DNA from: Bdellovibrionales bacterium
GTDB taxonomy: Bacteria > Bdellovibrionota > UBA1018 > CAIMNF01
Length of the DNA stretch: 64,000 nucleotides
Direction of reading: 5' to 3'
Assembly: GCA_947372355.1 (NCBI GenBank)
Contig: CANBTI010000001.1
Span: forward strand, 18,296 to 82,295
Shown: in pieces, positions 4,436 through 59,121 of the stretch
Numbering within the stretch: position 1 is the stretch's first letter
Layout of the letters: each line of letters begins with the position of its first letter
Notes under the pieces: generated by a model
Told to the model about the DNA's origin: nothing
Seen by the model: the letters and a program-made list of their open reading frames with translations, nothing else
Database searches by the model: none
Program-made: the position numbers and the translations under genes

Positions 4436-4672
4436 ATGGCAGCTTCATCTAGTCAGCAGGCAAAAGGTACAGTTAAATGGTTCAACGACGCAAAAGGTTT
4501 CGGTTTTATTCAAACTGAAGTTTTAACGGGCGATATTTTCGTTCATTATAGCGCTATTCAAGGCGATGGTTTCAAAACCTTGTCTGAAGGACAAGCGGTT
4601 GATTTCGAACTAGTTACAGGTCCTAAAGGTCCACAAGCTTTCAATGTAATGAAAGCAGAATCAAACAACTAA
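4436..4672 (+). CDS. cspA: Cold-shock protein, CspA family
   Basis: [15 protein letters not shown] ... FVHYSAI ... RNP1/RNP2 motifs typical of the CSD fold. SD AAAGGGGA upstream. Confidence 0.9.
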
Positions 4673-4715: not shown

Positions 4716-4750
4716 TAAAAAAGGCTTGTTCTTCGGAACAAGCCTTTTTT
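4716..4750. terminator. Bidirectional Rho-independent terminator between convergent csp and the M20-like gene
   Basis: A7-GGCTTGTTC-TTCG-GAACAAGCC-T6, flanked by A-run and T-run. A second hairpin ATCTGT..ACAGAT lies at 4681-4701. Confidence 0.7.
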
Positions 4751-4772: not shown

Positions 4773-6215
4773 TCAGCCGCTCATGGCAAATATTAGATCT
4801 TGGTAATAATGGATCGCTTTTTGTAATTCTTCCCAAGTCACTTGCTCGTTAGGACCCTTTGGATGAGTGTTCATAGAACCCATACCCACAATCGATGTTG
4901 GAAACTTTGCTTTAACAAATAAACCTGCATCGCTCAGGTAATTAATGTTTTTTGAGCTGAGCACAAATTCCGATAAAGCACCCGGTACAGAATAGTTTTT
5001 CATCATTTGAAAATGAAGGTGTGGATAGTGAACTAAAGATTTAGAAACTATTTCTTTCCATTCCTTTTCAACAACATTTAGCAGGTGATTCGGCATTAAT
5101 CTTAGTTCAAATGAAAGTGAAATTTTCCCAGGACTCTTCATTTGAACGCGGGTAATTGAACCTTGGCTATTGGGTTGATCAAAACTTAAATTAGGTTGAA
5201 GATTCAACTTTTCAATAAATTGTTTCCACTCATAATCAAGGCGCAAAATTACTTCAACTAACTGTTGAGGGATAAAGCTTGCTCCAGTATCCGTGGCGTT
5301 AGAGTATTCAACCCTGAATGTACGCTCTAGATTTCCGTGACTAAGATGTGTTTTGATGAATTGTTTAAAGTCTTCGAATTGAAAAGTAGTTAGATATATT
5401 TTTACTTTTGCTAAATCAGGAACTGCACCCTCTGCACCCTTTACAGATAAAGATCCCCACTGGAAATCAAACCCTGCATCCGTTGCATCCAATAATAAGT
5501 TCATGAGTAAATCAAAAGAATTGGATGCATGATTTTTTTGTGCAAGATCTAAACTTAATCCTGTGGTTAAAATTTCCACACATCGATTATAACCCTTTGA
5601 ATCTCGCTCTTTTCCAGCAGCATCAACTTCAATTTGAAAAACAAGTTGCCCTGGTGATTGGTTGGTTTGTAAAAGTTGAGTGGGTGCAAATGTGTAAACT
5701 GATTTTGGATTTACAGAAAGGGATTCAACTAAATATTTAGAACCCAGCATTCCAAATTGGGATGCGCATGTCCCCACTAAATATATTGGTGTTTTGTGGC
5801 TTCTCTTTGGCAAATCTGCGGCACCAAATATCCTACACAGAAAATCGAGTTTGCCTTGTACGGCTCCAGCACCAACAATTTTATTCTCATCTACATAAGC
5901 TGCAAAAGGATTACCTTGTGTGAGAGTCCATTGAGCGGGAATGCTTCCGCTAGTAACATCCAATGGATTTACAAATAAAACTCCGTTACGCGTTGATCGA
6001 TCCACTAGCGTGTCTGAACTAAATCCAATTAAATTAGACTGACGTTTTGAAAGTCGCTCTACCGAATGACCTACGGGTTGAATTTGAGTTTTAAATCCAA
6101 ACTCGGTCATGAGTGCACGTAAATATAAAACTAATTCATCATTCCCATTTTCTTCATGAGAAGGAATACTAAGTACTTTTTTTGCACATTCTTTAAAATA
6201 ACTGAAATTTGGCAT
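4773..6215 (-). CDS. M20/ArgE/DapE-like family protein; catalytic metal-ligand motifs not evident
   Basis: N-terminal region (LSIPSHEENGNDELVLYLRALMTEFGF) and overall length resemble M20 peptidases. The usual H-x-D, GxxD and EE motifs are not recognisable. ATG at 6215 chosen (ORF track TTG at 6233). Confidence 0.3.
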   Translation of the reverse strand: MPNFSYFKECAKKVLSIPSHEENGNDELVLYLRALMTEFGFKTQIQPVGHSVERLSKRQSNLIGFSSDTLVDRSTRNGVLFVNPLDVTSGSIPAQWTLTQGNPFAAYVDENKIVGAGAVQGKLDFLCRIFGAADLPKRSHKTPIYLVGTCASQFGMLGSKYLVESLSVNPKSVYTFAPTQLLQTNQSPGQLVFQIEVDAAGKERDSKGYNRCVEILTTGLSLDLAQKNHASNSFDLLMNLLLDATDAGFDFQWGSLSVKGAEGAVPDLAKVKIYLTTFQFEDFKQFIKTHLSHGNLERTFRVEYSNATDTGASFIPQQLVEVILRLDYEWKQFIEKLNLQPNLSFDQPNSQGSITRVQMKSPGKISLSFELRLMPNHLLNVVEKEWKEIVSKSLVHYPHLHFQMMKNYSVPGALSEFVLSSKNINYLSDAGLFVKAKFPTSIVGMGSMNTHPKGPNEQVTWEELQKAIHYYQDLIFAMSG

Positions 6216-6283
6216 CTTACTTATAAATATCAAATACTTATTTTTCTTGCAATGTCATAGGCAAAATCGTTTAATGAAACAAA

Positions 6284-7641: not shown

Positions 7642-8331
7642 ATGATCTCTATTGATGAAATTCATCAGAAAATAAAAGATCGCGATTATCACGGAGCTGA
7701 TTCGTTGATTGCTCTCGGCATTAAGCATGAGCCTGATAATGCAGATCTATATTATCTTCGAGGTTTACTTCGGAGCTATCAGGGAAAACTAACTCTCTCC
7801 ATTGAAGATCTTAAATATTGCCTTAAAACGGATTCTAAACACACAGACGCAGCAGTGTGTTTAAGCATCATTTTAAATGATATTGGTCATTATGAAGAAG
7901 CAAAAGTTATTTTTGATCGAGCAAACCAAAGTGTATTTTTAAAACAAACTGGCGATGACACTCAAGTTGACCAAAAGTTTGCTGTTAAACATTTTGAACT
8001 TGGAGATTTATATTTTCGTCATCGACGCTTTGATGAAGCAATTGAAGAGTACAATAAGGCAATTATTTTAGATCCTGCCAGTACAGAGACTAGAGTGAAA
8101 CGGGCAAAGGCTTTTGCTAAAAAAGGTTTTCTCACCAGAGCCATTCAAGATTTGCAGCAATTAAAAATTGAGCGTCCAAATAGTACGATGGTTGGAGTTC
8201 AGCTGGGCTTATTACACTACAGCCAAGGAAATGTACTTGATGCTCAAATTGAATGGGATTCGGTTTTAGAAAACGATCCTGTAAATCGCGAAGCCATTGC
8301 CTACTTAGAGCTGATTAAAAAATTAGATTAA
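7642..8331 (+). CDS. TPR-repeat protein
   Basis: Multiple TPR-like helical repeats (YYLRGLL..., AIEEYNKAIILDP...). Confidence 0.45.
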   Translation: MISIDEIHQKIKDRDYHGADSLIALGIKHEPDNADLYYLRGLLRSYQGKLTLSIEDLKYCLKTDSKHTDAAVCLSIILNDIGHYEEAKVIFDRANQSVFLKQTGDDTQVDQKFAVKHFELGDLYFRHRRFDEAIEEYNKAIILDPASTETRVKRAKAFAKKGFLTRAIQDLQQLKIERPNSTMVGVQLGLLHYSQGNVLDAQIEWDSVLENDPVNREAIAYLELIKKLD

Positions 8332-8853
8332 TTCTACGCGAGCGTGAACTGGAAGTTCTTTTACTTCTAGTGCAGCCAAAGCAGACTTTTCTGTACTCTT
8401 TGAAGGATTCGCAATTAAGTGAGTGCGAAGTTCTTTAAACATTGGATGTTTGATTGGTTGATCATTCTCTTGAAGTACAATTTGTTTTGCAGTTTTTTCG
8501 CGAACATTGATTACCAGAGGAGCCTTTAGATTAGCGGTCATTTCTGACATCACAGCAGGAATGGTAAGAATGGTAAACACACTTGCATCTTTAATCGATG
8601 AAAGACGAAGCTCGCGCAATTCAGCAGCTGACAATCTTACAATGTATTCTGGTTTAAATATTTTTGGTTCTAAAACTGGAAATGCTAGATGAGGCTTACT
8701 TAATGATTGCAGCCATAGGATCAAGGTATCGTCACCTGGATCTACCAAGCAAAAATTCTGATCTTCTGGAAAACCTAATACACCACTTGGAATGGAAATT
8801 ATTTCTTCAGAAGAAACTTCGATCTGTCCAAAACGTCCTGTTTTTACGATCAC
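8323..8853 (-). CDS. fliW: Flagellar assembly factor FliW (CsrA antagonist)
   Basis: N-terminus MIVKTGRFGQIEVSSEEIISIPSGVLGFPE...WLQSL matches the FliW family pattern. Lies downstream of csrA in the flagellar operon. Confidence 0.75.
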   Translation of the reverse strand: MIVKTGRFGQIEVSSEEIISIPSGVLGFPEDQNFCLVDPGDDTLILWLQSLSKPHLAFPVLEPKIFKPEYIVRLSAAELRELRLSSIKDASVFTILTIPAVMSEMTANLKAPLVINVREKTAKQIVLQENDQPIKHPMFKELRTHLIANPSKSTEKSALAALEVKELPVHARVELI

Positions 8854-8988
8854 AAATACCTCCAGGATAAATTTACCCTAGTAATACAATACCTTGTTTT
8901 TCAAAGAGAGCAATAGCGTTATTCGCTAAAACGAAGAAATTGTCAAAATAATGACAATTTAACATTTGGGCCGATGGGTGGGATTTGA

Positions 8989-9210
8989 TTAATCTTTTAG
9001 GATTTTAGATAATTGCTGTAGTTCTGGTGCTGCTCCAGCCTCTTTATTGGAGTCCTGAATGGCTGAGTAAACTTCTTCGCGGTGAATTTTGGTCTCTTTG
9101 GGTGCTTGAATCCCTAAACGGACTTGCTTGCCCTTGATCTGCACTACGGTGATCTTAATGTGATCATCTATCGCAATGCTTTCACCCAATTTACGGGTTA
9201 AAACTAACAT
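8989..9210 (-). CDS. csrA: Carbon storage regulator CsrA
   Basis: MLVLTRKLGESIAIDDHIKITVVQIKGKQVRLGIQAPKETKIHREEVY is a canonical CsrA. Confidence 0.9.
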   Translation of the reverse strand: MLVLTRKLGESIAIDDHIKITVVQIKGKQVRLGIQAPKETKIHREEVYSAIQDSNKEAGAAPELQQLSKILKD

Positions 9211-9310
9211 CTTTACTCTCCATAGTTTTTAAATAACCGTCTTAATTACTTTTAATAATCCATGACGATACCGCATTAATTAGCTTAATCTTAAGGCTTT
9301 CACAAGAAAA

Positions 9311-10327
9311 TTATCTTAAAAAGTCTAACAAAGTGGGTTGAATCAAATGTTTCGAACTAGCAAGACTGCTCTTAAAAACAGTCTCTTCTTTTGCCAAATC
9401 GCTTACAATTTGCGTCATGTCTGCATCTTCAATACTTGAACTTAACTGAGCATTGGCGATGTTGTGTCGATCCATCGTGTTGATATTACCTTGGATTCCT
9501 TGAACCCTTGAACCGATTTTAGAGCGGGTTGAAACCACTTTTCCCAAAAGATCGTCAAAACGCTCCAAAGTTCCGCGGATCGTTGATTGATCTCCGGTTA
9601 ATAATCCAATCCGCAAAGACTTCAACTCTTCAAATAAATTTACATTTGGTGAGGCGCCCGACTTTTCTTCCATGCCCTCAGTGGCAAGACGTCTAACGGG
9701 ATCAGGTTTTTTATCATCTAATGGTTTTGTCTGATCAAGCGTTCTTTGATTTAACTCTCTTTGATCGGTTGAGTTTTCTGGATTCGTATTAAAAATTTGA
9801 TGACCAGGAATATTCATCCCAATAAATACTTCTCGACCAATCTCTACCATCATCTCACCAGCATCACCGTGATAATTTCCGTCTGAATCTACAGGATTGG
9901 TTGTGTTCTTATAACCCCCAAAAAGAAATCGATCGCCGACTCTTCTGTTTGAAGTGGCGATGGCTCTTTGAAAAAGTTGATTCACTTCTTCGGAAACACC
10001 CAATCTTGTCTCTTTAGTAGAACTCGCGCTACTGGATTGGCCGATAGCAATTTCCTTTGCTCTCATCACAATCTCACTTAAATCCTCAAGAGCGGCATCA
10101 GTATTCTCTAAAAATGCTTGAGCTAATTTTGCATTAGACTGGAATTGTTCATTGTTCACTTTGTCGGTCCTCACTTCAAGAATTTTAGCCGATCCGACTG
10201 GATCATCTGAGGGCTTATTTAGTTTTTTTAGCGTAGAGTTTTTTAATTGAAGATCATCCATACGTGACTTTGATCTAGTCATGTTGTCTCGAACCACCCC
10301 AAAATTAGTGTTATCGCTGATTCTCAA
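9311..10327 (-). CDS. flgL: Flagellar hook-associated protein 3, FlgL
   Basis: Flagellin-like N- and C-terminal helices. Position immediately after flgK. Confidence 0.7.
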   Translation of the reverse strand: MRISDNTNFGVVRDNMTRSKSRMDDLQLKNSTLKKLNKPSDDPVGSAKILEVRTDKVNNEQFQSNAKLAQAFLENTDAALEDLSEIVMRAKEIAIGQSSSASSTKETRLGVSEEVNQLFQRAIATSNRRVGDRFLFGGYKNTTNPVDSDGNYHGDAGEMMVEIGREVFIGMNIPGHQIFNTNPENSTDQRELNQRTLDQTKPLDDKKPDPVRRLATEGMEEKSGASPNVNLFEELKSLRIGLLTGDQSTIRGTLERFDDLLGKVVSTRSKIGSRVQGIQGNINTMDRHNIANAQLSSSIEDADMTQIVSDLAKEETVFKSSLASSKHLIQPTLLDFLR

Positions 10328-10331
10328 TTAG

Positions 10332-11759
10332 TTACCCTCTTAACCTTAGTACAGTATCTAGCATTTCATCTGCCGTTTTAATTACTTTTGCTGAAGCATC
10401 AAATGCATGCTGAAATTGCATTAAATTCGTAGTTTCCTCATCGATCGAAACACCTGAAGTTTGTTCTCTCACTTTTCCAAGCTGAGCCATAATGCTTCTA
10501 TTTTGAGATAGAGTTTCGTTATTACGGGCATTCGTTACACCAATATCACTTACGATCGAGTTATAAAAATCGTCTGCAGTAGTGCGCCCGCCATTGAACA
10601 AATGAACATTTTGAAGGTTTGAAATTGCAAGTGCGTTGCGATTATCTCCCGGAGCATCTGGCTGAAGTGCGATTGCGATGTTTCCTACCGAGGAATGAAT
10701 GTCTTGTGACAATGCAAGTCTCTGAGCTGCTCCCTCTGGTCCATCCATTGGAGCAAAAAAACTGATTCCAGTTTTGCCGTCTGCCGTAAATCCCTTTTCA
10801 TGAAGTTCATTCACCGAACTGGCAACCGAAAATGCAAGTTGATCTAAACGATCTAAAACCATTGAAATGGATTTATCACGAGTTTCAATCAATGCACCTA
10901 ATTTACCATTTTTAAAACGATCAGTAAGATATTGAGTGCTGTGAGGTGAGCGAGCAATTTGTAATGAATTTGCAACACTTCCTTGATCCTCTTGAGCTGG
11001 TGCACGTCCCACATGATAAGATTCAAAATTTACACCCGTTACAATTGGTCCAACACCGCGAATGTCTACGTTCACCATTCCGCTGTTATCTTTAGTTACA
11101 TTTAAATCAACTAGTGTATTCATTTTTTTGATCACCATATCTCGGCGATCTTGTAAATCGTTGGCATCATTGCCTTGAATTTCAGCTACATGAATACGGT
11201 TATTCAATTCTGCTAGTTCTTTACCAAATGAAGTGAGCTCCTTCATGTTTCCATCAACACGGTTATCAACATGATTACGAATTTGTTCAACTTCTGTGCG
11301 AATTCTTCTAAAATCACCCACCATCGCTTGAGAAGATTCACGCACCGCTTGTCTTACTGCTTCACTAGATGGTTCACTAGAGAGCTTTCTAAAATCGTTA
11401 AAAAACTTTGCGACCAAGCGATTGAGTCCATCACCATTCATTTCATTGAAAACATCTTCAACTTGTCCTAAAAAAACTTGTTTTTCTTCGTTATAGGAAA
11501 GATCTCTCCCACCTTCACGAAGTTGTTTTTCAATATAATTATCGTTAATTCTTTCAATGCGAGAAAGCTTAGAGCCTTGGCCGTAGTAAGGACCACCTTG
11601 TCCAGCAATTTGATTTGTTACTTGAGCTTCAGAAACCGCACGTTGACGTGAAAATCCCTCAGTACCAGCATTCGAGATATTATGACCAGCGGTTGCGATT
11701 CCTGCTTTCGCAGTCGTCATTCCCGATTTTCCTGATTGAAAAACATTCAACAAGGCCAT
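10332..11759 (-). CDS. flgK: Flagellar hook-associated protein 1, FlgK
   Basis: N-terminus MALLNVFQSGKSGM...NISNAGTEGFSRQRA. C-terminal conserved helix. Confidence 0.8.
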   Translation of the reverse strand: MALLNVFQSGKSGMTTAKAGIATAGHNISNAGTEGFSRQRAVSEAQVTNQIAGQGGPYYGQGSKLSRIERINDNYIEKQLREGGRDLSYNEEKQVFLGQVEDVFNEMNGDGLNRLVAKFFNDFRKLSSEPSSEAVRQAVRESSQAMVGDFRRIRTEVEQIRNHVDNRVDGNMKELTSFGKELAELNNRIHVAEIQGNDANDLQDRRDMVIKKMNTLVDLNVTKDNSGMVNVDIRGVGPIVTGVNFESYHVGRAPAQEDQGSVANSLQIARSPHSTQYLTDRFKNGKLGALIETRDKSISMVLDRLDQLAFSVASSVNELHEKGFTADGKTGISFFAPMDGPEGAAQRLALSQDIHSSVGNIAIALQPDAPGDNRNALAISNLQNVHLFNGGRTTADDFYNSIVSDIGVTNARNNETLSQNRSIMAQLGKVREQTSGVSIDEETTNLMQFQHAFDASAKVIKTADEMLDTVLRLRG

Positions 11760-11765
11760 TTAAGT

Positions 11766-12308
11766 TTATACCTCTCTCGAAATTAATCTTGGACCATGCT
11801 CGTTCGCTGATGCTGTATTTTTTTGTCCCTGTTGGTTATAGGTTCTTGCTTGATGTGTGGTTTCACCGAAAATGTTTCTCTTCATATTATCAATATGCTG
11901 AAGAGACGCATTCACAAGGTTTCCATTCACTTCGTTTTGTTTTTTAATTCTTTCTACTAATAAAATTAAAACACTCAAATCAGATTGAAGTCTGCTCGAA
12001 ATTTCAAGATCATTGGATTGAAAGTGCAAAATTAATTCACGTAAGGACGGAGTTTTTGTTTCTAAATTTTGTTCTTGTGCTATTGCATACACAATCGACT
12101 GACGACTCATTTCAGATTGATGAATCCAATGAATCAAAGCTTCTTTTGCTGCTGCTGCTTCATAAGTAGCCTTAACGTCTGCATTGGTAATTGCTTCGTT
12201 TTCTGATTTAACTACATCGTTCAATTGTCGGTGTAACCCAATCAAATCCTGTAAGGATCCGTGAAGTTTTTCCGATAATTTTTCCGATAATTTTTTTTCT
12301 GTTTCCAT
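11766..12308 (-). CDS. FlgN-like flagellar chaperone (putative)
   Basis: Helical coiled-coil protein of about 180 aa directly upstream of flgK. Start taken at METEKK. Contains a KLSEKLSEKL duplicated motif. Confidence 0.4.
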   Translation of the reverse strand: METEKKLSEKLSEKLHGSLQDLIGLHRQLNDVVKSENEAITNADVKATYEAAAAKEALIHWIHQSEMSRQSIVYAIAQEQNLETKTPSLRELILHFQSNDLEISSRLQSDLSVLILLVERIKKQNEVNGNLVNASLQHIDNMKRNIFGETTHQARTYNQQGQKNTASANEHGPRLISREV

Positions 12309-12359
12309 TTTCATCCTCACCCGCATCCTGCTCGGAGGTTAATTGGTTTTGTTAAAAAC

Positions 12360-12686
12360 TTATGCGCCAGCTAAACGAATGTGATCATCCACTAGTTTAT
12401 CAGCAATTGCATCTGCTCCAACATTGTATTTTTTATTTTGAATGCGCTCTTTGAGTTCAGCGATTTTTGCTTCGCGCACATCAGGAGTATCTGCCGCGAT
12501 TTGCTTTGCTTTCGCCATATCTTTTGCTTTTGAAGAAATCTCTGCGTTTGCAGATTCACTCTTCGGAGCTGAAATAGATTCTTCTGATTTATTTTCATAA
12601 CCAGAGATTTTTGACTTTTCTATTTTTTTGGTATCTGAACTTTGAATGCCTGAACTACCGGCTGCAATGTTTGAATTAATCTTCAT
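12360..12686 (-). CDS. flgM: Anti-sigma-28 factor FlgM
   Basis: C-terminus KIAELKERIQNKKYNVGADAIADKLVDDHIRLAG matches the FlgM sigma-28-binding region. Start taken at MKINSNIAAG (the ORF track's upstream extension is unlikely). Confidence 0.65.
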   Translation of the reverse strand: MKINSNIAAGSSGIQSSDTKKIEKSKISGYENKSEESISAPKSESANAEISSKAKDMAKAKQIAADTPDVREAKIAELKERIQNKKYNVGADAIADKLVDDHIRLAGA

Positions 12687-13035
12687 GTGTACCTCCTGTA
12701 CCTTGAGACCTATTATTATTATACTTTGGCTGTGGTTGTGAGCGCAACCAATAATCAATAATTTGTTGAGAAAGTCCTAAAGAATTGCCCTTTGCTGAAA
12801 TATCCGCATACTCTTGGTCAAGCATTCCCTGATAAATATCTGACGCTGAATTATGCAATGAAAACTCGTTTGGTTCGCCTTGTGTTTTTTTCATCGCGTC
12901 CATCATCATAGAAGTGAATTGAGCCTCTAAACCCTCGGCAGCCTTACGCATTTCCGGTGAGATCCTAGGATCGTCATTATTTTGATGCTGCGTTTTAATC
13001 GGTGGAATTTGGGGGGGGGTTGAGGAGGGTTTCAT
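12676..13035 (-). CDS. Flagellar rod-binding protein (FlgJ N-terminal-domain-like)
   Basis: AEGLEAQFTSMMMDAMKKT...SDIYQGMLDQEYADISAKGNSLGLSQQI matches the rod-binding (FlgJ N-terminal) family. No muramidase domain. Overlaps flgM by 11 nt. Confidence 0.6.
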   Translation of the reverse strand: MKPSSTPPQIPPIKTQHQNNDDPRISPEMRKAAEGLEAQFTSMMMDAMKKTQGEPNEFSLHNSASDIYQGMLDQEYADISAKGNSLGLSQQIIDYWLRSQPQPKYNNNRSQGTGGTHED

Positions 13036-13062
13036 TACAAAACCCCCCTCAACCCGTGAATC
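13008..13062 (-). promoter_or_regulatory. Stable stem-loop sequestering the SD and start codon of the flgJ-like gene; contains a G9/C9 tract
   Basis: mRNA sense: GGGUUGAGGGGGGUU-[UUGUAAUGA]-AACCCUCCUCAACCC. The stem is 15 bp with one G.U pair, the AUG sits in the loop, and the SD GAGGGGGG lies in the 5' arm. Confidence 0.5.
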
Positions 13063-13231
13063 GATGGCTCTATCGACGAGAACATCTTGTTCTTTAAGCC
13101 GGGCCGTGAATTTTCAGTTTCATGATAACCCACCATCCTAGCAGGTCGTTGCTGATTGACTGTTTCCTGGTTCACGTCCACATTTATCCTTCCTTGGATT
13201 AGCTTTGTCTTCTTCCCTTCGTTCACAATTG

Positions 13232-14257
13232 TTACAACAACTCCAGTTCCGCTTGAAGCGCACCGGTTGCCTTGATGGTTTGAAAAATCGCTGTAAGATC
13301 TTTCGGTTGAACACCAAGGGTGTTGAGTAATTTTACTAAATCAGAAACGGTTGCGCCCTTCACCTCATAGAGACGATCGCCTTTTCCCGCATTTCCTTTA
13401 ACTTGAATTGAAAGATCACCGTGAGCAATCGCAACGGGAGTAATACTCACATGATCACCCATCACTACCGTGCCGGTTCTTTCGTTTAATACAACTTTTG
13501 CTTTTGAATCTACAACCACTCGAACATTTTCAATTCGAGCCATAAGTTCTACTGTATTTCCGTCATAATTGAACGGCACTACTACGTCTACTGTTGCGCT
13601 GTCTCTTGCTGATGCAAACTTTCCGCCTAATTCCGCGTTTACTAGTGATACTAGACGGGCTGCGGTGGTGAAGTCTGGATTGTTGAGCGAGAGACGAAAG
13701 CTCTTTTTTCCGGAGAAATTCGTATCAACGTCCTTTTCAATCATCGCGCCAGAAACAATTCTACCCACTGTAGGAAAAGTAGATTTTCCATCGGCTAACG
13801 ATCCTAAAGTTACCGTACCTTGAGCAACGGCATAAGTTTGCTGATCACCAGCACGTAGTGGTGTCACCAAAAGAACTCCGCCCTCTAATGATGTTGCATC
13901 TCCGATAGAGCTAACAGTGATATCAATTTGAACACCTGATCGTGCAAACGGAGGAAGTTTTGCGGTAACAATAACAGCTGCTGCATTTTTAGAATTAATT
14001 TTTTCATTCTTTGTTACGTCTAAGCCTAGCTTACTAAAAAGCTTACCCAAAGATCTTGCAGTAACATCGGCACTAGAATCTCCGGTTCCTTTTAATCCAA
14101 CAATCACTCCGTATCCGATAAGAATATTCTCGCGAACACCCTTCACAGAAGCGATATCTTTTAATCTAGCTCCGGAATTTTCTGCGCGTGATGCAGAAGA
14201 AACCAAAAGCATCGTCACCAGTAATGAACTAGCGAGCAACGCGTACTTTATATTCAT
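13232..14257 (-). CDS. flgI: Flagellar P-ring protein FlgI
   Basis: Signal peptide plus KDIASVKGVRENILIGYGVIVGLKGTGDS, the canonical FlgI motif. Confidence 0.9.
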   Translation of the reverse strand: MNIKYALLASSLLVTMLLVSSASRAENSGARLKDIASVKGVRENILIGYGVIVGLKGTGDSSADVTARSLGKLFSKLGLDVTKNEKINSKNAAAVIVTAKLPPFARSGVQIDITVSSIGDATSLEGGVLLVTPLRAGDQQTYAVAQGTVTLGSLADGKSTFPTVGRIVSGAMIEKDVDTNFSGKKSFRLSLNNPDFTTAARLVSLVNAELGGKFASARDSATVDVVVPFNYDGNTVELMARIENVRVVVDSKAKVVLNERTGTVVMGDHVSITPVAIAHGDLSIQVKGNAGKGDRLYEVKGATVSDLVKLLNTLGVQPKDLTAIFQTIKATGALQAELELL

Positions 14258-15122
14258 ATAATTTCCCCGATTTTATTAAGTCTGCATCATCAAAATCTGT
14301 TGCCGGCGCAACCGCTACTAATGAAACAAGTTTTGAAGATCCTCTAAACATCACACGCTTTACCGCTCTGATTTTATAATTCCCATTTTGGTATCGATCT
14401 ATAATTTCAGCACGAAATTCTTCACTAGGAAGCACACCAATTGATTTACTTAAATCAACTTGGGACCATCTCACCGCTTTTTCCATTTTGGTTTTAATGA
14501 TTTCAGCATCATTAGTTTTTAAATCTTCGGCTGCTACGTTACGGTAAGCTTGCAAATCTTTGTCGTCTTTAGCTCCAGAATTATTCTTGAGATAAAGCGC
14601 CATTTCAACTTCTTGCTCAGCAGGAGAAAGGCTTTTTTTGATTTCTTCGCCTATGTGTTTCACCATTTCTTCTTCTACTTTAATTGAAATAATATCTCCC
14701 ATGGCACGCACTTTAGTTTTGGAATAGAAATAATTTGAATCATTCTCTCCTGTCCAAAGCGATCCATCACCAGGAGCTCGATCAATAAAATCAGCTTTAG
14801 TTGCACGATCACCTCTCGCATATTGAGATACATATGCGCCGCGATTAGTTTCAATTTTTCCACGAACTTGTTCGTCTGTTGGATCTAAAGCATCACTTTG
14901 TCCAGTTTCAGATACACTTGCAACTTCTCTAGTTTGGCTTTCATAAGATGAATTTTCACGAGTTGTTTCAACAGGAGTTCTCGCCGCGCCCCAGTTTGGA
15001 TGTTGATCGCCATAAGTGAGCTTATTGTAATCTTCGCTTTCTGCACCACTGAACACACTATGAAAAGTTGAACAACCAGTGAGAATAAAAATGAAAGTCA
15101 GTACTAAAAAATATACTTTCAT
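14229..15122 (-). CDS. flgH: Flagellar L-ring lipoprotein FlgH (with an extended low-complexity N-terminal linker)
   Basis: Lipobox LTGCS. Conserved DGSLW...AMGDIISIKVEE core. About 70 extra residues lie between the lipobox and the core. Overlaps flgI by 29 nt. Confidence 0.8.
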   Translation of the reverse strand: MKVYFLVLTFIFILTGCSTFHSVFSGAESEDYNKLTYGDQHPNWGAARTPVETTRENSSYESQTREVASVSETGQSDALDPTDEQVRGKIETNRGAYVSQYARGDRATKADFIDRAPGDGSLWTGENDSNYFYSKTKVRAMGDIISIKVEEEMVKHIGEEIKKSLSPAEQEVEMALYLKNNSGAKDDKDLQAYRNVAAEDLKTNDAEIIKTKMEKAVRWSQVDLSKSIGVLPSEEFRAEIIDRYQNGNYKIRAVKRVMFRGSSKLVSLVAVAPATDFDDADLIKSGKLYEYKVRVAR

Positions 15123-55466: not shown

Positions 55467-55596
55467 AAAGCGTCAAATTAGCCACATTAATCAAATAAAC
55501 TATAATAAAATAAAATAATTTCATTTAAATTTCTTACAAAACGTAAGAACCTATTATTAGGCCTGGGGCGCAAGGATGCTTCACGGGAGGATAATT

Positions 55597-58500
55597 TTGG
55601 TTTCAAGGATGAAGATTTTTAAAAAAGTTTCTACACTTTTCTCAGTGTTATTCATAACTCTGAGCCCTTCTACGTCCTTTGCTAACTGGACACGTTATCA
55701 AAATTATAAAATAAAATTAGACGTTCCAACAGGCTGGAAAATTGAGCGTGATCTTTTTGGAATGCCAATTACCGTATTGGGTCCTGAAAGAAATGGAGAG
55801 CGTGCAGTACTGAGTGTTCAGCACACCCCCGTTTTTGGTTTAGAATTTAATCATCAAAATATAGTTAAAACTAAAAATCAATACTATGAAGGAAGAAAAA
55901 AATGGGTTGATTCACTTGAAGACGCTTCTTTTTTAAGTGAAATTCCATACCAACACATAAAGCAAGAAAATGGGAACGACGGCTTTGAAATGGGTTTTAG
56001 ATACCATGTCAGAAACCTCGACTTAGAAGAAAAAAGTATTCAATTGAATTGTGGAAATCGACTTTTTTTAATTAAAACTCTTTCAAGCAATAAAATTCCT
56101 GAAGCAGATACCGCTCAATTAGCAAAATTAGTGAATGAGTTAGATTGCGTTTCTACCACTTCAAAAGATGGCGCTTATGAACCAAGCGTTCTTCAAGATT
56201 TTGATCGTAAATTTAAGGATCAAATATCTGGAACTTCACCTTGGCCTACAAAAGAGCAAATTAAAGATTCTGGCACACCTGAAAAAGCAGTCATGCTTGA
56301 AGCATTGGTAGAGTTCTATAAAAATTACGAAAATTCTGGAGGAGAAGATTCTTATTCATACAATCGTAATCCAGTTAAAGATCAATATTTTGCAAAAATT
56401 AAAGATAGAACAGATCAAATTTTTTCAATCTTCTTATCTAAAGCGTCTGCAAAAGATGGTTATGATTGTTTTTTTGGTGGTTGGCCAAGTAAATTTATAA
56501 AAAAGAATGGTGTAGCTACCTGTGGTTATCCATGGGAAACAAATTCAGATTATTCAAAAAACAATTCTGGCTGTGGAGAAGGAAAACTAGGCTGTAACCC
56601 TTCTCTATTTGGATCAAATATTTGTGTTGATGTAAGCAATAGCGGCGAACGATCACATGCTACTCTTTCTTGCGAAATGGGTTTTCGCTCTAGTGGTAAA
56701 AGTTACGAAGATGTTGTTAAATCAGCTGATTTTGATCAATCCGTTCTAAATAACACTCTAAACTCAGCAAAAGAAGTGTGCAGTCAGGAACCATATACCT
56801 CAGCAAATTATGGTTTATGTTCAACCCTTAAAGAAAAATTAGGAATCAGTATCTCATCCGGAAAACATGCTCAAGATGAATCCGATGTAAAATTTATTAA
56901 TGGCATGGAAGAAATGAAGCCAGAAAATTTTGATGAATATGTAAAGGCTACAGAAAAAAACTATAAAGAATTTGAAGCTCGATGCATCGACGAAAAGGGT
57001 GATCTTAAAACAAATGTTGAAGGATGTTTAGAGGATCATTTAGCCATTTTAAATGACTTAGAAAAAATTGATAAAAGATCAAAAGATATTGGGCAAGAAT
57101 TACAAGAAGAAGATGCACCAAACTCAATCAATAATGGAAATTGTTCAAAGGCAGACTGTAGTTCACCCACTGTTGAAAGTGTTCAACCTAAAAAGGATGA
57201 ACCATCAAATGGTAAGTGTTCAGTTCAAGAGGAAAAAAGAAAAAAAGAAAAAGAATGTAATTGGTCTAAGGGTATGTTCATGGCAGGAAGTTGTGCTTGG
57301 AATGTAATCACTTCAATGGTGAGTTCATTGTGGGGAACAATCAAAGCAATAGGTGAGCTTGCGTGGGATGGTGTGAAGTGGGTTGGGAATAAATCTGTTC
57401 AGGGTGCCAAATGGCTTGCTAGTTTGGTTGGTTATGAAGATGAATCATCTAAAAAATTAAATACAGCTGCACAAACGAGTAATAGCGCAATTGAATCTTT
57501 CAAAAAAGATCCAATGGGATCTGCTATCAATTTTTTCAAAAGTATCTATGATGGTGTTGTAAATTTTGTTTCTACTGATGTTGCCTGCGAAAAATGGTCT
57601 GGCGTTCCACACAATTCAACATGTTTATTGCCTGCAAGTGGTTGGAAATGTATGCCTTGCATGGATCGAATGGATACCGTTTGTTCAACAGTAGGATATG
57701 TTGCGGCTGAATTTCTACCTGCTTTCTTCACCGGTGGAGCAACTTCTGCTTTAAAAGGATCTGCAATCGCTGCAAAAGTAGGTGGATATCTTGGTAAAGT
57801 GAGTAAGCTGGGGAAACTCACTCGACTAGAAGCTGATATTATAAAACTTACGAGTAAAGCAACTAAAGTAGAAAGATACGGCTTAAGAGCAGCTAAATAT
57901 GAATCAGAAGTTTTAAAAGCAGAAATCGGTATTGCTGGAAATTTAAGTAAAACACAAAAAATTATTGGAAAAGTTTATAATGTAAGCCGCTGGCCAGTTA
58001 AACAATTCAATAAAATAAAGAGTGCATATACCCGTGCAAAAAATGTATTAACTGGGTTTAAATCTAAGGCCTTTGGTTCTGTTAAAAATACAATTGAAGG
58101 ATTACAGAGACTACGAAAAAAATATTATGTTGTTAAAGCTGGTTCATGGGTAGTTGAAAACACTGTTGTTCAACCATTAAAATTAGCAGCAAAAATAGCA
58201 ACCGCTCCTATTCGTTATCCAATGAGATGGACAAATAGTTATGTCAGGACACAAGCGAAGATATATAAGGTAGGACTAAGATTTGGAGAAAAAAGATTTA
58301 ATGATGTGTTGGTAAAATCAGCAAGCATGAGTAAGTATCCAACCTTAGCTAAAAACATAGCTTTATATAGCTCTATTTCTAAATATCCTGCATTTGGCTC
58401 TCATATGTTGGATGAGTTTAGAGAAAGACTCAGCATGAAAGATGATAACAATCCAAATATGTTTTGGAAATCATCCCATGAAATTGAAGTACAAGCTAAA

Positions 58501-59121
58501 CTTGATGGTAAAAATCCTGAGGAAGTAAAATCAATTCTAAAGAAAAACAGGATCGATTTAATGACTAATACAATCGTTATGGATGCCTTAAATGCGGGTA
58601 AAGATCCAAAAGAAGTGGATTTAAAATACCTTTCAAAAATTAGAGGGATTTCCAATGAAGAAATTCGTGTGGAATCAATCGATTCAAGACTTCAAGCAAT
58701 TGCCAATGGAACTTTGCCAACTTTCACTCAAAGTGATTATGATGCAATAGCAAAAATTAATAAGATCAGTTCAACAGAAGCAAAAAATCAAATTCAAAAT
58801 GAAGTTAAAATTCAAGTTGCTTCATCAAAGGTAATCAATCTTTTGAATGAGGGTAAAAAACCAGAAGATGAGGCATTGAAAAATCTAGCATCACTCAAAA
58901 AAGTGAACGTTGATGAACTGGTAATTGAATCCATTGATTATAGAATTAATTCTGTATTGGGCGGAGTAAAACCAAAGTTTTCTAGTTTTGATTATGAAAC
59001 ATGGGCAAGAGTAAATCATGTCTCTATTGAAGAGGCTAAAAAGTATATCGATTCTGAAGTGCAGGATTCATTAAATATGATTTCTGATCCTTCATCAACT
59101 AATGGAGCAAAAACGCAATGA
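55597..59121 (+). CDS. Large secreted Cys-rich hypothetical protein (cassette gene A, about 1175 aa)
   Basis: Probable TTG start at 55597, 6 nt after the SD GGGAGGA. Signal peptide ...LFITLSPSTSFA. The N-terminal domain carries a DVPTGWK motif. The middle is cysteine-rich. The C-terminus carries two tandem repeats of about 70 aa. Confidence 0.55.
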   Translation: MVSRMKIFKKVSTLFSVLFITLSPSTSFANWTRYQNYKIKLDVPTGWKIERDLFGMPITVLGPERNGERAVLSVQHTPVFGLEFNHQNIVKTKNQYYEGRKKWVDSLEDASFLSEIPYQHIKQENGNDGFEMGFRYHVRNLDLEEKSIQLNCGNRLFLIKTLSSNKIPEADTAQLAKLVNELDCVSTTSKDGAYEPSVLQDFDRKFKDQISGTSPWPTKEQIKDSGTPEKAVMLEALVEFYKNYENSGGEDSYSYNRNPVKDQYFAKIKDRTDQIFSIFLSKASAKDGYDCFFGGWPSKFIKKNGVATCGYPWETNSDYSKNNSGCGEGKLGCNPSLFGSNICVDVSNSGERSHATLSCEMGFRSSGKSYEDVVKSADFDQSVLNNTLNSAKEVCSQEPYTSANYGLCSTLKEKLGISISSGKHAQDESDVKFINGMEEMKPENFDEYVKATEKNYKEFEARCIDEKGDLKTNVEGCLEDHLAILNDLEKIDKRSKDIGQELQEEDAPNSINNGNCSKADCSSPTVESVQPKKDEPSNGKCSVQEEKRKKEKECNWSKGMFMAGSCAWNVITSMVSSLWGTIKAIGELAWDGVKWVGNKSVQGAKWLASLVGYEDESSKKLNTAAQTSNSAIESFKKDPMGSAINFFKSIYDGVVNFVSTDVACEKWSGVPHNSTCLLPASGWKCMPCMDRMDTVCSTVGYVAAEFLPAFFTGGATSALKGSAIAAKVGGYLGKVSKLGKLTRLEADIIKLTSKATKVERYGLRAAKYESEVLKAEIGIAGNLSKTQKIIGKVYNVSRWPVKQFNKIKSAYTRAKNVLTGFKSKAFGSVKNTIEGLQRLRKKYYVVKAGSWVVENTVVQPLKLAAKIATAPIRYPMRWTNSYVRTQAKIYKVGLRFGEKRFNDVLVKSASMSKYPTLAKNIALYSSISKYPAFGSHMLDEFRERLSMKDDNNPNMFWKSSHEIEVQAKLDGKNPEEVKSILKKNRIDLMTNTIVMDALNAGKDPKEVDLKYLSKIRGISNEEIRVESIDSRLQAIANGTLPTFTQSDYDAIAKINKISSTEAKNQIQNEVKIQVASSKVINLLNEGKKPEDEALKNLASLKKVNVDELVIESIDYRINSVLGGVKPKFSSFDYETWARVNHVSIEEAKKYIDSEVQDSLNMISDPSSTNGAKTQ

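Follow-up and report, generated by a model that had tools for sequence, protein, structure and literature searches.

A conserved hairpin over the flgJ ribosome-binding site and an unannotated open reading frame between flgI and flgJ in Bdellovibrionota: a probable translational-coupling junction

Translational coupling between adjacent bacterial genes is accounted for by two accepted and non-exclusive models, RNA unfolding and re-initiation (PMC12548453), and overlaps of the ATGA and TGATG type occur in termination-reinitiation coupling (PMC6728339). Coupling can also relay regulation, as in the leader of Escherichia coli iraD, where CsrA represses an upstream open reading frame (uORF) of short length, to which iraD is translationally coupled (Park et al. 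2017, PMC5574718). The high-affinity consensus for CsrA and RsmE is an ANGGAX hexaloop directly atop a stem (PMC4005645); CsrA of Bdellovibrio represses via GGA hairpins in a heterologous assay (PMC13443453), and the FliW-type CsrA of Campylobacter jejuni binds many flagellar mRNAs, intercistronic sites included (PMC4894983). In Geobacter, a flgJMNKL-csrA-fliW unit has been shown experimentally to be co-transcribed as an operon (PMC11934962). Here, we analyse the junction between flgI and a flgJ-like gene in a stretch of 64,000 nucleotides (nt) from a Bdellovibrionales bacterium (assembly GCA_947372355.1, contig CANBTI010000001.1, positions 18,296 to 82,295), hereafter the window, in which all coordinates are given. 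A very stable hairpin (H4) covers the ribosome-binding site (RBS) of flgJ, and a small unannotated open reading frame (ORF), named X, ends in its loop. Comparison with related loci suggests that H4 is probably the lock of a junction at which flgJ translation depends on the translation of X.

The flgJ hairpin and the reading frame that ends in it

At the start of the flgJ-like gene, the minus strand reads GGGUUGAGGGGGGUU-UUGUAAUGA-AACCCUCCUCAACCC, followed by further C, within the region ...CACGGGTTGAGGGGGGTTTTGTAATGAAACCCTCCTCAACCCCCCCCCAAATT... RNAfold folds this transcript into a GC-rich stem of 17 bp, free of internal mismatches, around a GUAAU loop (-30.8 kcal/mol), and the stem is retained in a 301-nt context. 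The 5' arm holds the flgJ Shine-Dalgarno (SD) sequence GAGGGGGG, and codons 2-6 make up the 3' arm; of the start codon, the A and U (13035-13034) lie in the loop. The initial annotation had described a 15-bp stem burying both the SD and the AUG; the sequence and the burial are as it described them, and only the length needs amending, as RNAfold extends the stem to 17 bp. It had also held that such a structure was unlikely to arise by chance and should block ribosome access, and both expectations found support. An equally good fold was reached in none of 200 dinucleotide shuffles (z = -4.07). Rendering flgJ positions -15 to +4 single-stranded costs 25.5 kcal/mol, approximately 5 standard deviations above the other starts in the window (55 ORF starts, mean 5.6 kcal/mol, standard deviation 4.0, next highest value 14.7). 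A family of REP-like (repetitive extragenic palindromic) dispersed repeats was rejected because no second copy of the arm sequence was found in the window. A search of positions 12000-14000 against Rfam at E <= 10 returned no relevant match, only spurious matches to eukaryotic small nucleolar and long non-coding RNAs.

Orthologous loci were taken from 16 species-level genomes chosen by FlgJ protein patterns alone (50-79% identity), and three closer metagenomic relatives were added to give an alignment of 20 sequences (A2); the closest relatives are metagenome-assembled genomes labelled Bdellovibrionales, Oligoflexia or Bdellovibrio. The check on flgJ-like orthologues that the initial annotation had proposed came out in favour of the hairpin: an equivalent is present in all 20 loci, with stems that differ in sequence and carry compensatory changes in every locus examined. 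Again, the 5' arm contains the SD, the loop the start codon and the 3' arm codons 3-6. RNAalifold recovered the stem on A2, where 92.4% of the alignment cells are paired and 9 of 12 pairs have changed on both sides. The G-rich block of the SD is kept in all loci. The loop sequence is not conserved except for the start codon. For the four-helix structure formed by H4 and three helices further upstream (H1, H2 and H3, discussed below), 95.3% of the cells pair and 15 pairs have undergone double changes. No shuffle out of 500 reached these pairing values, and every slid control fell to 37-54%.

Over 64 loci, the median opening energy of the flgJ RBS is 24.5 kcal/mol vs 7.2 kcal/mol for 336 other ORF starts taken from these loci, and 88% of the loci exceed the 95th percentile of these controls (Mann-Whitney p = 3e-32). 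Distant relatives sequester the same site with another geometry, in which the SD GGAGGGGGG pairs with UCCCCCCU, located 35-45 nt into flgJ and coding L-P-P-S, so that an 11-bp SD:anti-SD helix encloses an inner hairpin. The few weakly sequestered loci tend to have no good SD, which suggests that coupling is enforced in that way too. H4 is real and functionally constrained, far from what chance would produce, and these comparisons indicate that the lock on the RBS is ancient.

The spacer of approximately 196 nt between flgI and flgJ is strikingly conserved at the nucleotide level, with the invariant blocks CCAAGGAAGGAT, CCAGGAAAC and TGCTAGGATGG. The frame of X runs through H2, H3 and the 5' arm of H4, which forms the last eight codons of X; the flgJ SD held in this arm doubles as Arg-Gly codons close to the end of X. 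In the window, X probably starts at GTG 13181, which is preceded by an SD, lies five nt after AAGGAAGGA and is accessible, with an opening energy of 4.6 kcal/mol. The X frame is open in all 20 A2 loci, its TAA or TGA stop overlaps the flgJ ATG, and its conserved N-terminus reads M-[IN]-Q-E-T-x-x-x-Q-R-P-A-R-M-V-G.

A DNA pattern derived from two of the invariant blocks retrieved 58 further metagenomic loci. Among 71 distinct loci, 67 have a FlgJ rod-binding gene directly downstream; of the remaining four, contig ends truncate two, and one carries an X-flgJ fusion. The longer loci keep the flgA-H-I-X-J-M-N-K synteny. Reading-frame statistics were computed for 54 loci in which the flgJ frame was fixed independently. 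Stops are absent from the X frame in every one of these, while the other two frames are interrupted in 34 and 53 loci. Measured from the motif to the flgJ start, the interval takes 11 lengths between 119 and 152 nt, yet equals 2 mod 3 in 51 of the 54 loci, and the X stop overlaps the flgJ start in 50 (ATGA in 44, TAATG in 6). We infer from these frame patterns that X behaves as a translated ORF.

In distant members, X is a gene of 80-115 aa that begins with GTG or ATG, the start codon and the flgI stop overlapping as GTGA or ATGA. The N-terminus of this long form (loci L045-L102) reads M-I-x-W-K-D-F-x-L-D-D-x-x-G-P-x-L, a predicted small beta-hairpin, and the long form constitutes a family of 316 hypothetical proteins. 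Neither the short nor the long X has a match in Pfam or NCBIfam. In the subclade of the window, the N-terminal part has been lost and X is an ORF of 46-48 codons with its own SD; in one locus (L001), X must start at the MNQET position, because in-frame stops occur further upstream. Two subgroups of this subclade read the conserved H3 block in different X frames, the frame being restored ahead of H4 by indels of 1 nt and 2 nt. This suggests that selection on the 3' half of X maintains an open frame as far as the hairpin rather than a peptide. A programmed frameshift fusing X to flgJ was also considered and rejected, since every locus keeps a start codon (AUG or GUG) at a conserved spacing from the SD, and locus L003 has a stop in the flgJ frame four codons upstream of the AUG. 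Separately, X and flgJ form a single in-frame ORF of 203 aa in locus L050 (metagenome contig Ga0138276_1260019), by either a natural frameshift or an assembly error; its close relative L102 is unfused.

The structure of H4, its conservation, the ORF signature of X and the overlap of stop and start are established by sequence comparison. As the X stop overlaps the flgJ start inside the H4 loop, translational coupling is the best explanation of the junction, and we regard it as probable that flgJ is translated only in the wake of X. Unaided, H4 would bury the flgJ SD and start, making independent binding of a 30S subunit very costly. A ribosome translating X would unwind the 5' arm and, at termination, cover the whole hairpin; it could then re-initiate at the overlapping AUG or, alternatively, a new 30S subunit could enter the flgJ RBS before the stem refolds. 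FlgJ synthesis would thereby be slaved to X translation, and in the ancestral layout, where flgI, X and flgJ are all joined by 4-nt overlaps, to the translation of flgI and X. The initial annotation had envisaged an RNA-binding protein as the agent that opens the hairpin; a translating ribosome is the likelier opener, since a conserved ORF ends in the loop.

On the minus strand of the window, the genes follow in the order flgG, flgA, flgH, flgI, the spacer, the flgJ-like gene, flgM, flgN, flgK, flgL, csrA and fliW. The coordinates of the features discussed are collected in Table 1.

Table 1. Positions of RNA elements, reading frames and genes in the flgI-flgJ region and the downstream flagellar cluster
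Feature	Position	Strand	Description
flgI (P-ring), upstream gene	13232..14257	minus	stop overlaps X start in distant relatives
H1, AUCC[AAGGAA]GGAU	13186..13199	minus	ANGGAX hexaloop on a C-G-closed stem; SD of X; candidate CsrA/RsmE-type site
ORF X, 48 aa, unannotated	13035..13181	minus	GTG 13181; alternative starts GTG 13175 or GTG 13226
Invariant CCAGGAAAC block	13162..13170	minus	Gln-Glu-Thr codons of X; further GGA motif
H2, ACCUGCUA[GGA]UGGUGGGU	13128..13146	minus	8-bp helix around invariant GCUAGGAUGG
H3, AGAAC[AAGAU]GUUCU	13079..13093	minus	covarying hairpin; A2 columns 172-186
H4, hairpin sequestering the flgJ RBS	13017..13055	minus	5' arm 13055-13039, loop 13038-13034, 3' arm 13033-13017
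SD GAGGGGGG of the flgJ-like gene	13050-13043	minus	within the H4 5' arm; 7 nt from the AUG
Overlapping stop/start UAAUG	13033..13037	minus	X stop UAA 13037-13035, flgJ AUG 13035-13033
C9 run (G9 on the plus strand)	13011..13019	minus	codons ACC-CCC-CCC-C; first 3 C form the stem base
flgJ-like gene, 119 aa	12676..13035	minus	single-domain rod-binding protein, PF10135, E = 9e-10
flgM (anti-sigma-28)	12360..12686	minus	11-nt overlap with the flgJ 3' end; own GGAGG SD 12698-12694
csrA	8989..9210	minus	downstream, co-directional cluster
fliW, protein antagonist of CsrA	8323..8853	minus	downstream, co-directional cluster

GGA hairpins in and before X

The helices H1, H2 and H3 are backed by both RNAalifold and pair counts on A2. 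H1 displays a C-G-closed ANGGAX hexaloop, which fits the high-affinity CsrA/RsmE consensus (PMC4005645), in 60 of 70 loci, on stems as diverse as atcc/ggat, gcatc/gatgc, ctgtcc/ggatgg and tttcc/ggaaa, among others, and in the subclade of the window its loop and 3' arm (AAGGAAGGA) are the SD of X. Of 53 distinct sequences, 51-53 can form each of the five variable pairs of H2 and only 29 the pair next outward, which marks a sharp boundary. Residue changes in X, RP to PL together with V to A, are exactly the compensatory changes of H2, and hence the apparent protein motif at this place is RNA-constrained. The stem of H3 covaries (GAAC/GUUC, GGGC/GCCC, GGAC/GUCC and GGUC/GACC), and in 56 of 69 loci its loop is of the A(N)GGAX type, closed by C-G.

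The presence of csrA in the same operon, together with a GGA-containing element at the flgJ hairpin, had been taken in the initial annotation as suggestive of CsrA. The first half of this argument stands, as csrA is encoded in the same cluster and candidate A(N)GGAX loops are found 80-160 nt upstream. The second does not: the mRNA strand of H4 lacks any GGA, which occurs on the antisense strand only. It is possible, though on present sequence evidence somewhat doubtful, that translation of X is gated by CsrA. Free CsrA would then shut X and, via H4, also flgJ, and FliW would relieve the block, which would make a feedback loop on the cluster that encodes both CsrA and FliW. More tentatively still, the flgI-flgJ junction may be a composite switch maintained across a large clade of Bdellovibrionota, in which X carries a CsrA-type array and offers ribosomes the sole route to opening H4, and the head of the cluster is placed under CsrA/FliW feedback. 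An attenuator-like switch, with the 3' strand of H2 pairing with the anti-SD arm, was rejected as a general feature; the window allows it, but the far subgroup has not conserved it.

Several points weigh against coupling through X and its gating by CsrA. Translation of X, the dependence of flgJ on it and the binding of CsrA are all things that we infer. In the window, the H3 loop is AAGAU and the GGA has been lost. C[ANGGAN]G hairpins of the H1 type are about as frequent in the 64-kb window as expected (2 observed vs 1.3 expected, not significant), which leaves conservation to carry the argument for CsrA. CsrA could not simply block X initiation in distant relatives, where the start of X is coupled to the stop of flgI and the ORF itself contains the GGA hairpins. 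Nor is it obviously logical, given the order of flagellar assembly, for free CsrA to repress a rod-stage protein. The long X is predicted to be mostly disordered: AlphaFold2 with a 72-sequence alignment modelled it mostly as coil, with a predicted local distance difference test score (pLDDT) of 61 and a predicted template modelling score (pTM) of 0.21. Finally, the short X peptide had 2 matches in 5.8 billion proteins and gene callers almost never call X, a scarcity that points to X being unannotated rather than absent.

As a separate observation, the other C-G-closed ANGGAN hexaloop in the window, tttc[AAGGAT]gaag, is on the plus strand at 55601-55614, approximately 30 nt inside the start of an ORF of 1181 aa (55576-59121).

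Competing explanations and neighbouring features

Among the alternatives to coupling through X, a late sigma-28-type promoter inside X survives best, although we consider it unlikely. Its transcripts would start just 5' of H4, leaving X untranslatable and flgJ off; flgM, flgN, flgK and flgL would still be made, and FlgJ would come only from read-through flgA-H-I-X transcripts, an arrangement that is compatible with coupling. A sigma-28-like TAAAG-N14-GTCGATAG on the minus strand (13096-13070) fits 11 of the 13 consensus positions, in the window as well as in L035, L037 and L042, its three nearest relatives, and the candidate transcript would start approximately 5-8 nt 5' of the hairpin, without the X start. 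Since flgM has an independent GGAGG SD, such transcripts would still express it. In Geobacter, a 218-bp fragment upstream of flgJ was used as the regulatory region driving a complementing gene (PMC11934962). However, the motif falls to 9 of 13 positions in L002 and L003 and is absent in farther relatives, whereas the hairpin is universal, and the overlap of the motif with the covarying H3 explains part of the match. The promoter is thus an attractive but weakly supported extension. Scans of the spacer for a sigma-54 promoter gave no conserved match, and scans of positions 8000-14400 for sigma-70 promoters and intrinsic terminators gave none above shuffles.

A role of H4 in mRNA processing or stability, either as an RNase III site that parts flgI-X from flgJ or as a protective stem at a transcript end, appears distinctly less probable. 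A long, nearly perfect GC-rich stem at a gene junction would suit such a role. Yet the conserved trait is that the SD pairs specifically with C/U-rich codons downstream and that the start codon lies in the loop or next to it, and distant relatives achieve it with a different geometry. RNase III typically prefers roughly two helical turns, and the H4 stems are shorter than this preference; moreover, no U-tract follows the hairpin on either strand. An intrinsic terminator was likewise rejected, because H4 runs into C9 on the mRNA strand and into GTGAATCG on the opposite one, and it did not emerge from the terminator scan.

That a trans-acting RNA-binding protein such as CsrA binds H4 itself, opening or locking it, would be in keeping with a csrA gene in the same cluster as flgJ, but we regard it as very improbable. 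In addition to the missing GGA on the mRNA strand of the window, in those relatives whose SD contains GGA this motif is buried in the stem, the context of lowest affinity (PMC4005645), and the loop is unconserved apart from the start codon.

Equally improbable in our view is the use of the C9/G9 tract as a slipped-strand switch for phase variation of flgJ, a possibility raised in the initial annotation. As stated there, the run is inside the ORF and encodes T-P-P, and a 9-nt homopolymer early in a reading frame, the only G/C run of 7 or more in 64 kb, is what such a switch would use. Slips would truncate the protein, not after about 8 codons as had been supposed, but to 35 aa (-1, C8) or 13 aa (+1, C10). 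Against a switch, the run is conserved as an in-frame CCC-CCC Pro-Pro dicodon, 5-9 C long in 14 of the 20 A2 loci, even though CCC accounts for just 13% of the Pro codons in the window, whose 20 Pro-Pro dicodons include no other CCC-CCC. The nearest relative (99% protein identity) has C8 by a C to T substitution that changes Thr to Ile, and not by an indel; L035 and L036 have C8 by substitution, in frame, and all other loci are in frame, few near-identical contigs being available for this comparison. In distant relatives, the homologous C-run is the anti-SD partner, and in the window it can re-pair with the SD if the proximal arm is blocked (-17.2 vs -32.7 kcal/mol), so that the C-run past the stem base can serve as a back-up or ancestral anti-SD. 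The conservation of Pro-Pro against codon bias and this anti-SD role indicate that the tract is a constrained RNA and codon feature.

An RNA thermometer, which the sequestered SD and AUG might call to mind and which the initial annotation had already thought less likely, can be dismissed, as the stability of a GC-rich, mismatch-free stem of 17 bp (-30.8 kcal/mol at 37 C) lies far above the range that melts physiologically, and the organisms come from environmental, largely freshwater-type metagenomes.

Three further observations concern flgJ and its surroundings. The nearly invariant C-terminus of FlgJ, T-G-G-T-H-E-D, is the flgM RBS read in the flgJ frame (ACAGGAGGTACACATGAAGATTAA). In the window, at 12684-12698 on the minus strand, the flgM SD GGAGG (12698-12694) is followed by the flgM ATG (12686-12684), with the flgJ stop at 12678-12676, and this C-terminal protein motif probably reflects nucleotide constraint. 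A FlgJ homologue of 139 aa (P0008, JGI) has been called too long; its additional N-terminal sequence MLAEQDVLANRSIVSRAGEGFFV is the X region in the flgJ frame, and its true start is probably the GTG at 'VKS'. Elsewhere in the window, a perfect 15-bp inverted repeat, AAAAAAGGCTTGTTC/GAACAAGCCTTTTTT, at 4717-4750 between the convergent ORFs 4436-4672 (plus) and 4773-6233 (minus), looks like a bidirectional intrinsic terminator.

Comparison with described systems

What appears to be an intergenic spacer of 200 nt is, on this evidence, a defined regulatory module with a hidden ORF, four conserved RNA helices and an overlapping stop and start. X represents an uncharacterised gene family always wedged between flgI and flgJ, whose truncated form is missed by gene callers. 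The conserved 'protein motifs' QET/ARMVG in X and, in FlgJ, the N-terminal MKxPxxPP and the C-terminal TGGTHE are probably RNA signals read through the frame. Our literature searches found no description of the flgI-X-flgJ module. The coupling mechanism is known; the module, an X with embedded CsrA-type hairpins ahead of a flagellar cluster that contains csrA and fliW, appears to be new.

The classical cases of coupling, such as phage f1 VII/IX, MS2 coat-lysis and rpmI-rplT (PMC12548453), share with the junction described here a 4-nt or 1-nt overlap of stop and start, an SD inside the upstream ORF and an inhibitory hairpin over the downstream RBS that the upstream ribosome melts or, at flgJ, would melt. 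By contrast, the flgJ stem is unusually strong and perfect, with an opening cost of approximately 25 kcal/mol, and is kept clade-wide by compensatory change, while the ORF upstream of it is unannotated, has 46-48 codons and specifies a peptide that is in part free of constraint. The junction could offer a naturally occurring and deeply conserved case in which to study the strength of coupling that an RBS hairpin can impose. The leader and arrest peptides of ermC, secM-secA and mifM-yidC2 are similar in that the position of a ribosome on a short uORF controls the opening of a hairpin that hides an SD, as is proposed for X. X differs from these in having no conserved C-terminal arrest motif, its conserved part being N-terminal and RNA-constrained, and in a stop that overlaps the flgJ start, which points to coupling rather than stalling.

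In CsrA-FliW control of flagellar genes, known from Bacillus subtilis hag and C. jejuni flaA, flgI and flgM (PMC4894983), a FliW-type system likewise stands beside flgK/flgL, and GGA hairpin loops are likewise found in flagellar mRNAs, intercistronic positions included. Here, however, the target would be the flgJ junction and not flagellin, and the action would be indirect, through a uORF and an SD-sequestering hairpin. If the composite switch exists, CsrA-FliW would have ties to a rod-stage gene and to the gene next in line, that of the anti-sigma factor, and not to flagellin only.

The closest likeness to the proposal as a whole, by analogy, is the iraD leader of E. coli, where regulation passes entirely through coupling. 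Both have several CsrA sites, candidate ones in our case, far upstream of the regulated RBS, one of which overlaps the SD of the uORF; in both, RNA structure sequesters the downstream SD and the uORF stop overlaps the downstream start. The module described here differs in belonging to Bdellovibrionota and in its target, the flagellar flgJ-flgM-...-csrA-fliW cluster, so that the loop would be autoregulatory. It differs further in that X descends from a real gene of 80-115 aa that is coupled to flgI in relatives, that the GGA hairpins lie inside the ORF, that the element has been kept over approximately 70 divergent loci and that its CsrA sites are predicted ones. Should the composite switch prove true, the iraD-type control of a coupled uORF by CsrA would have a second example, one of independent origin and with far wider conservation.

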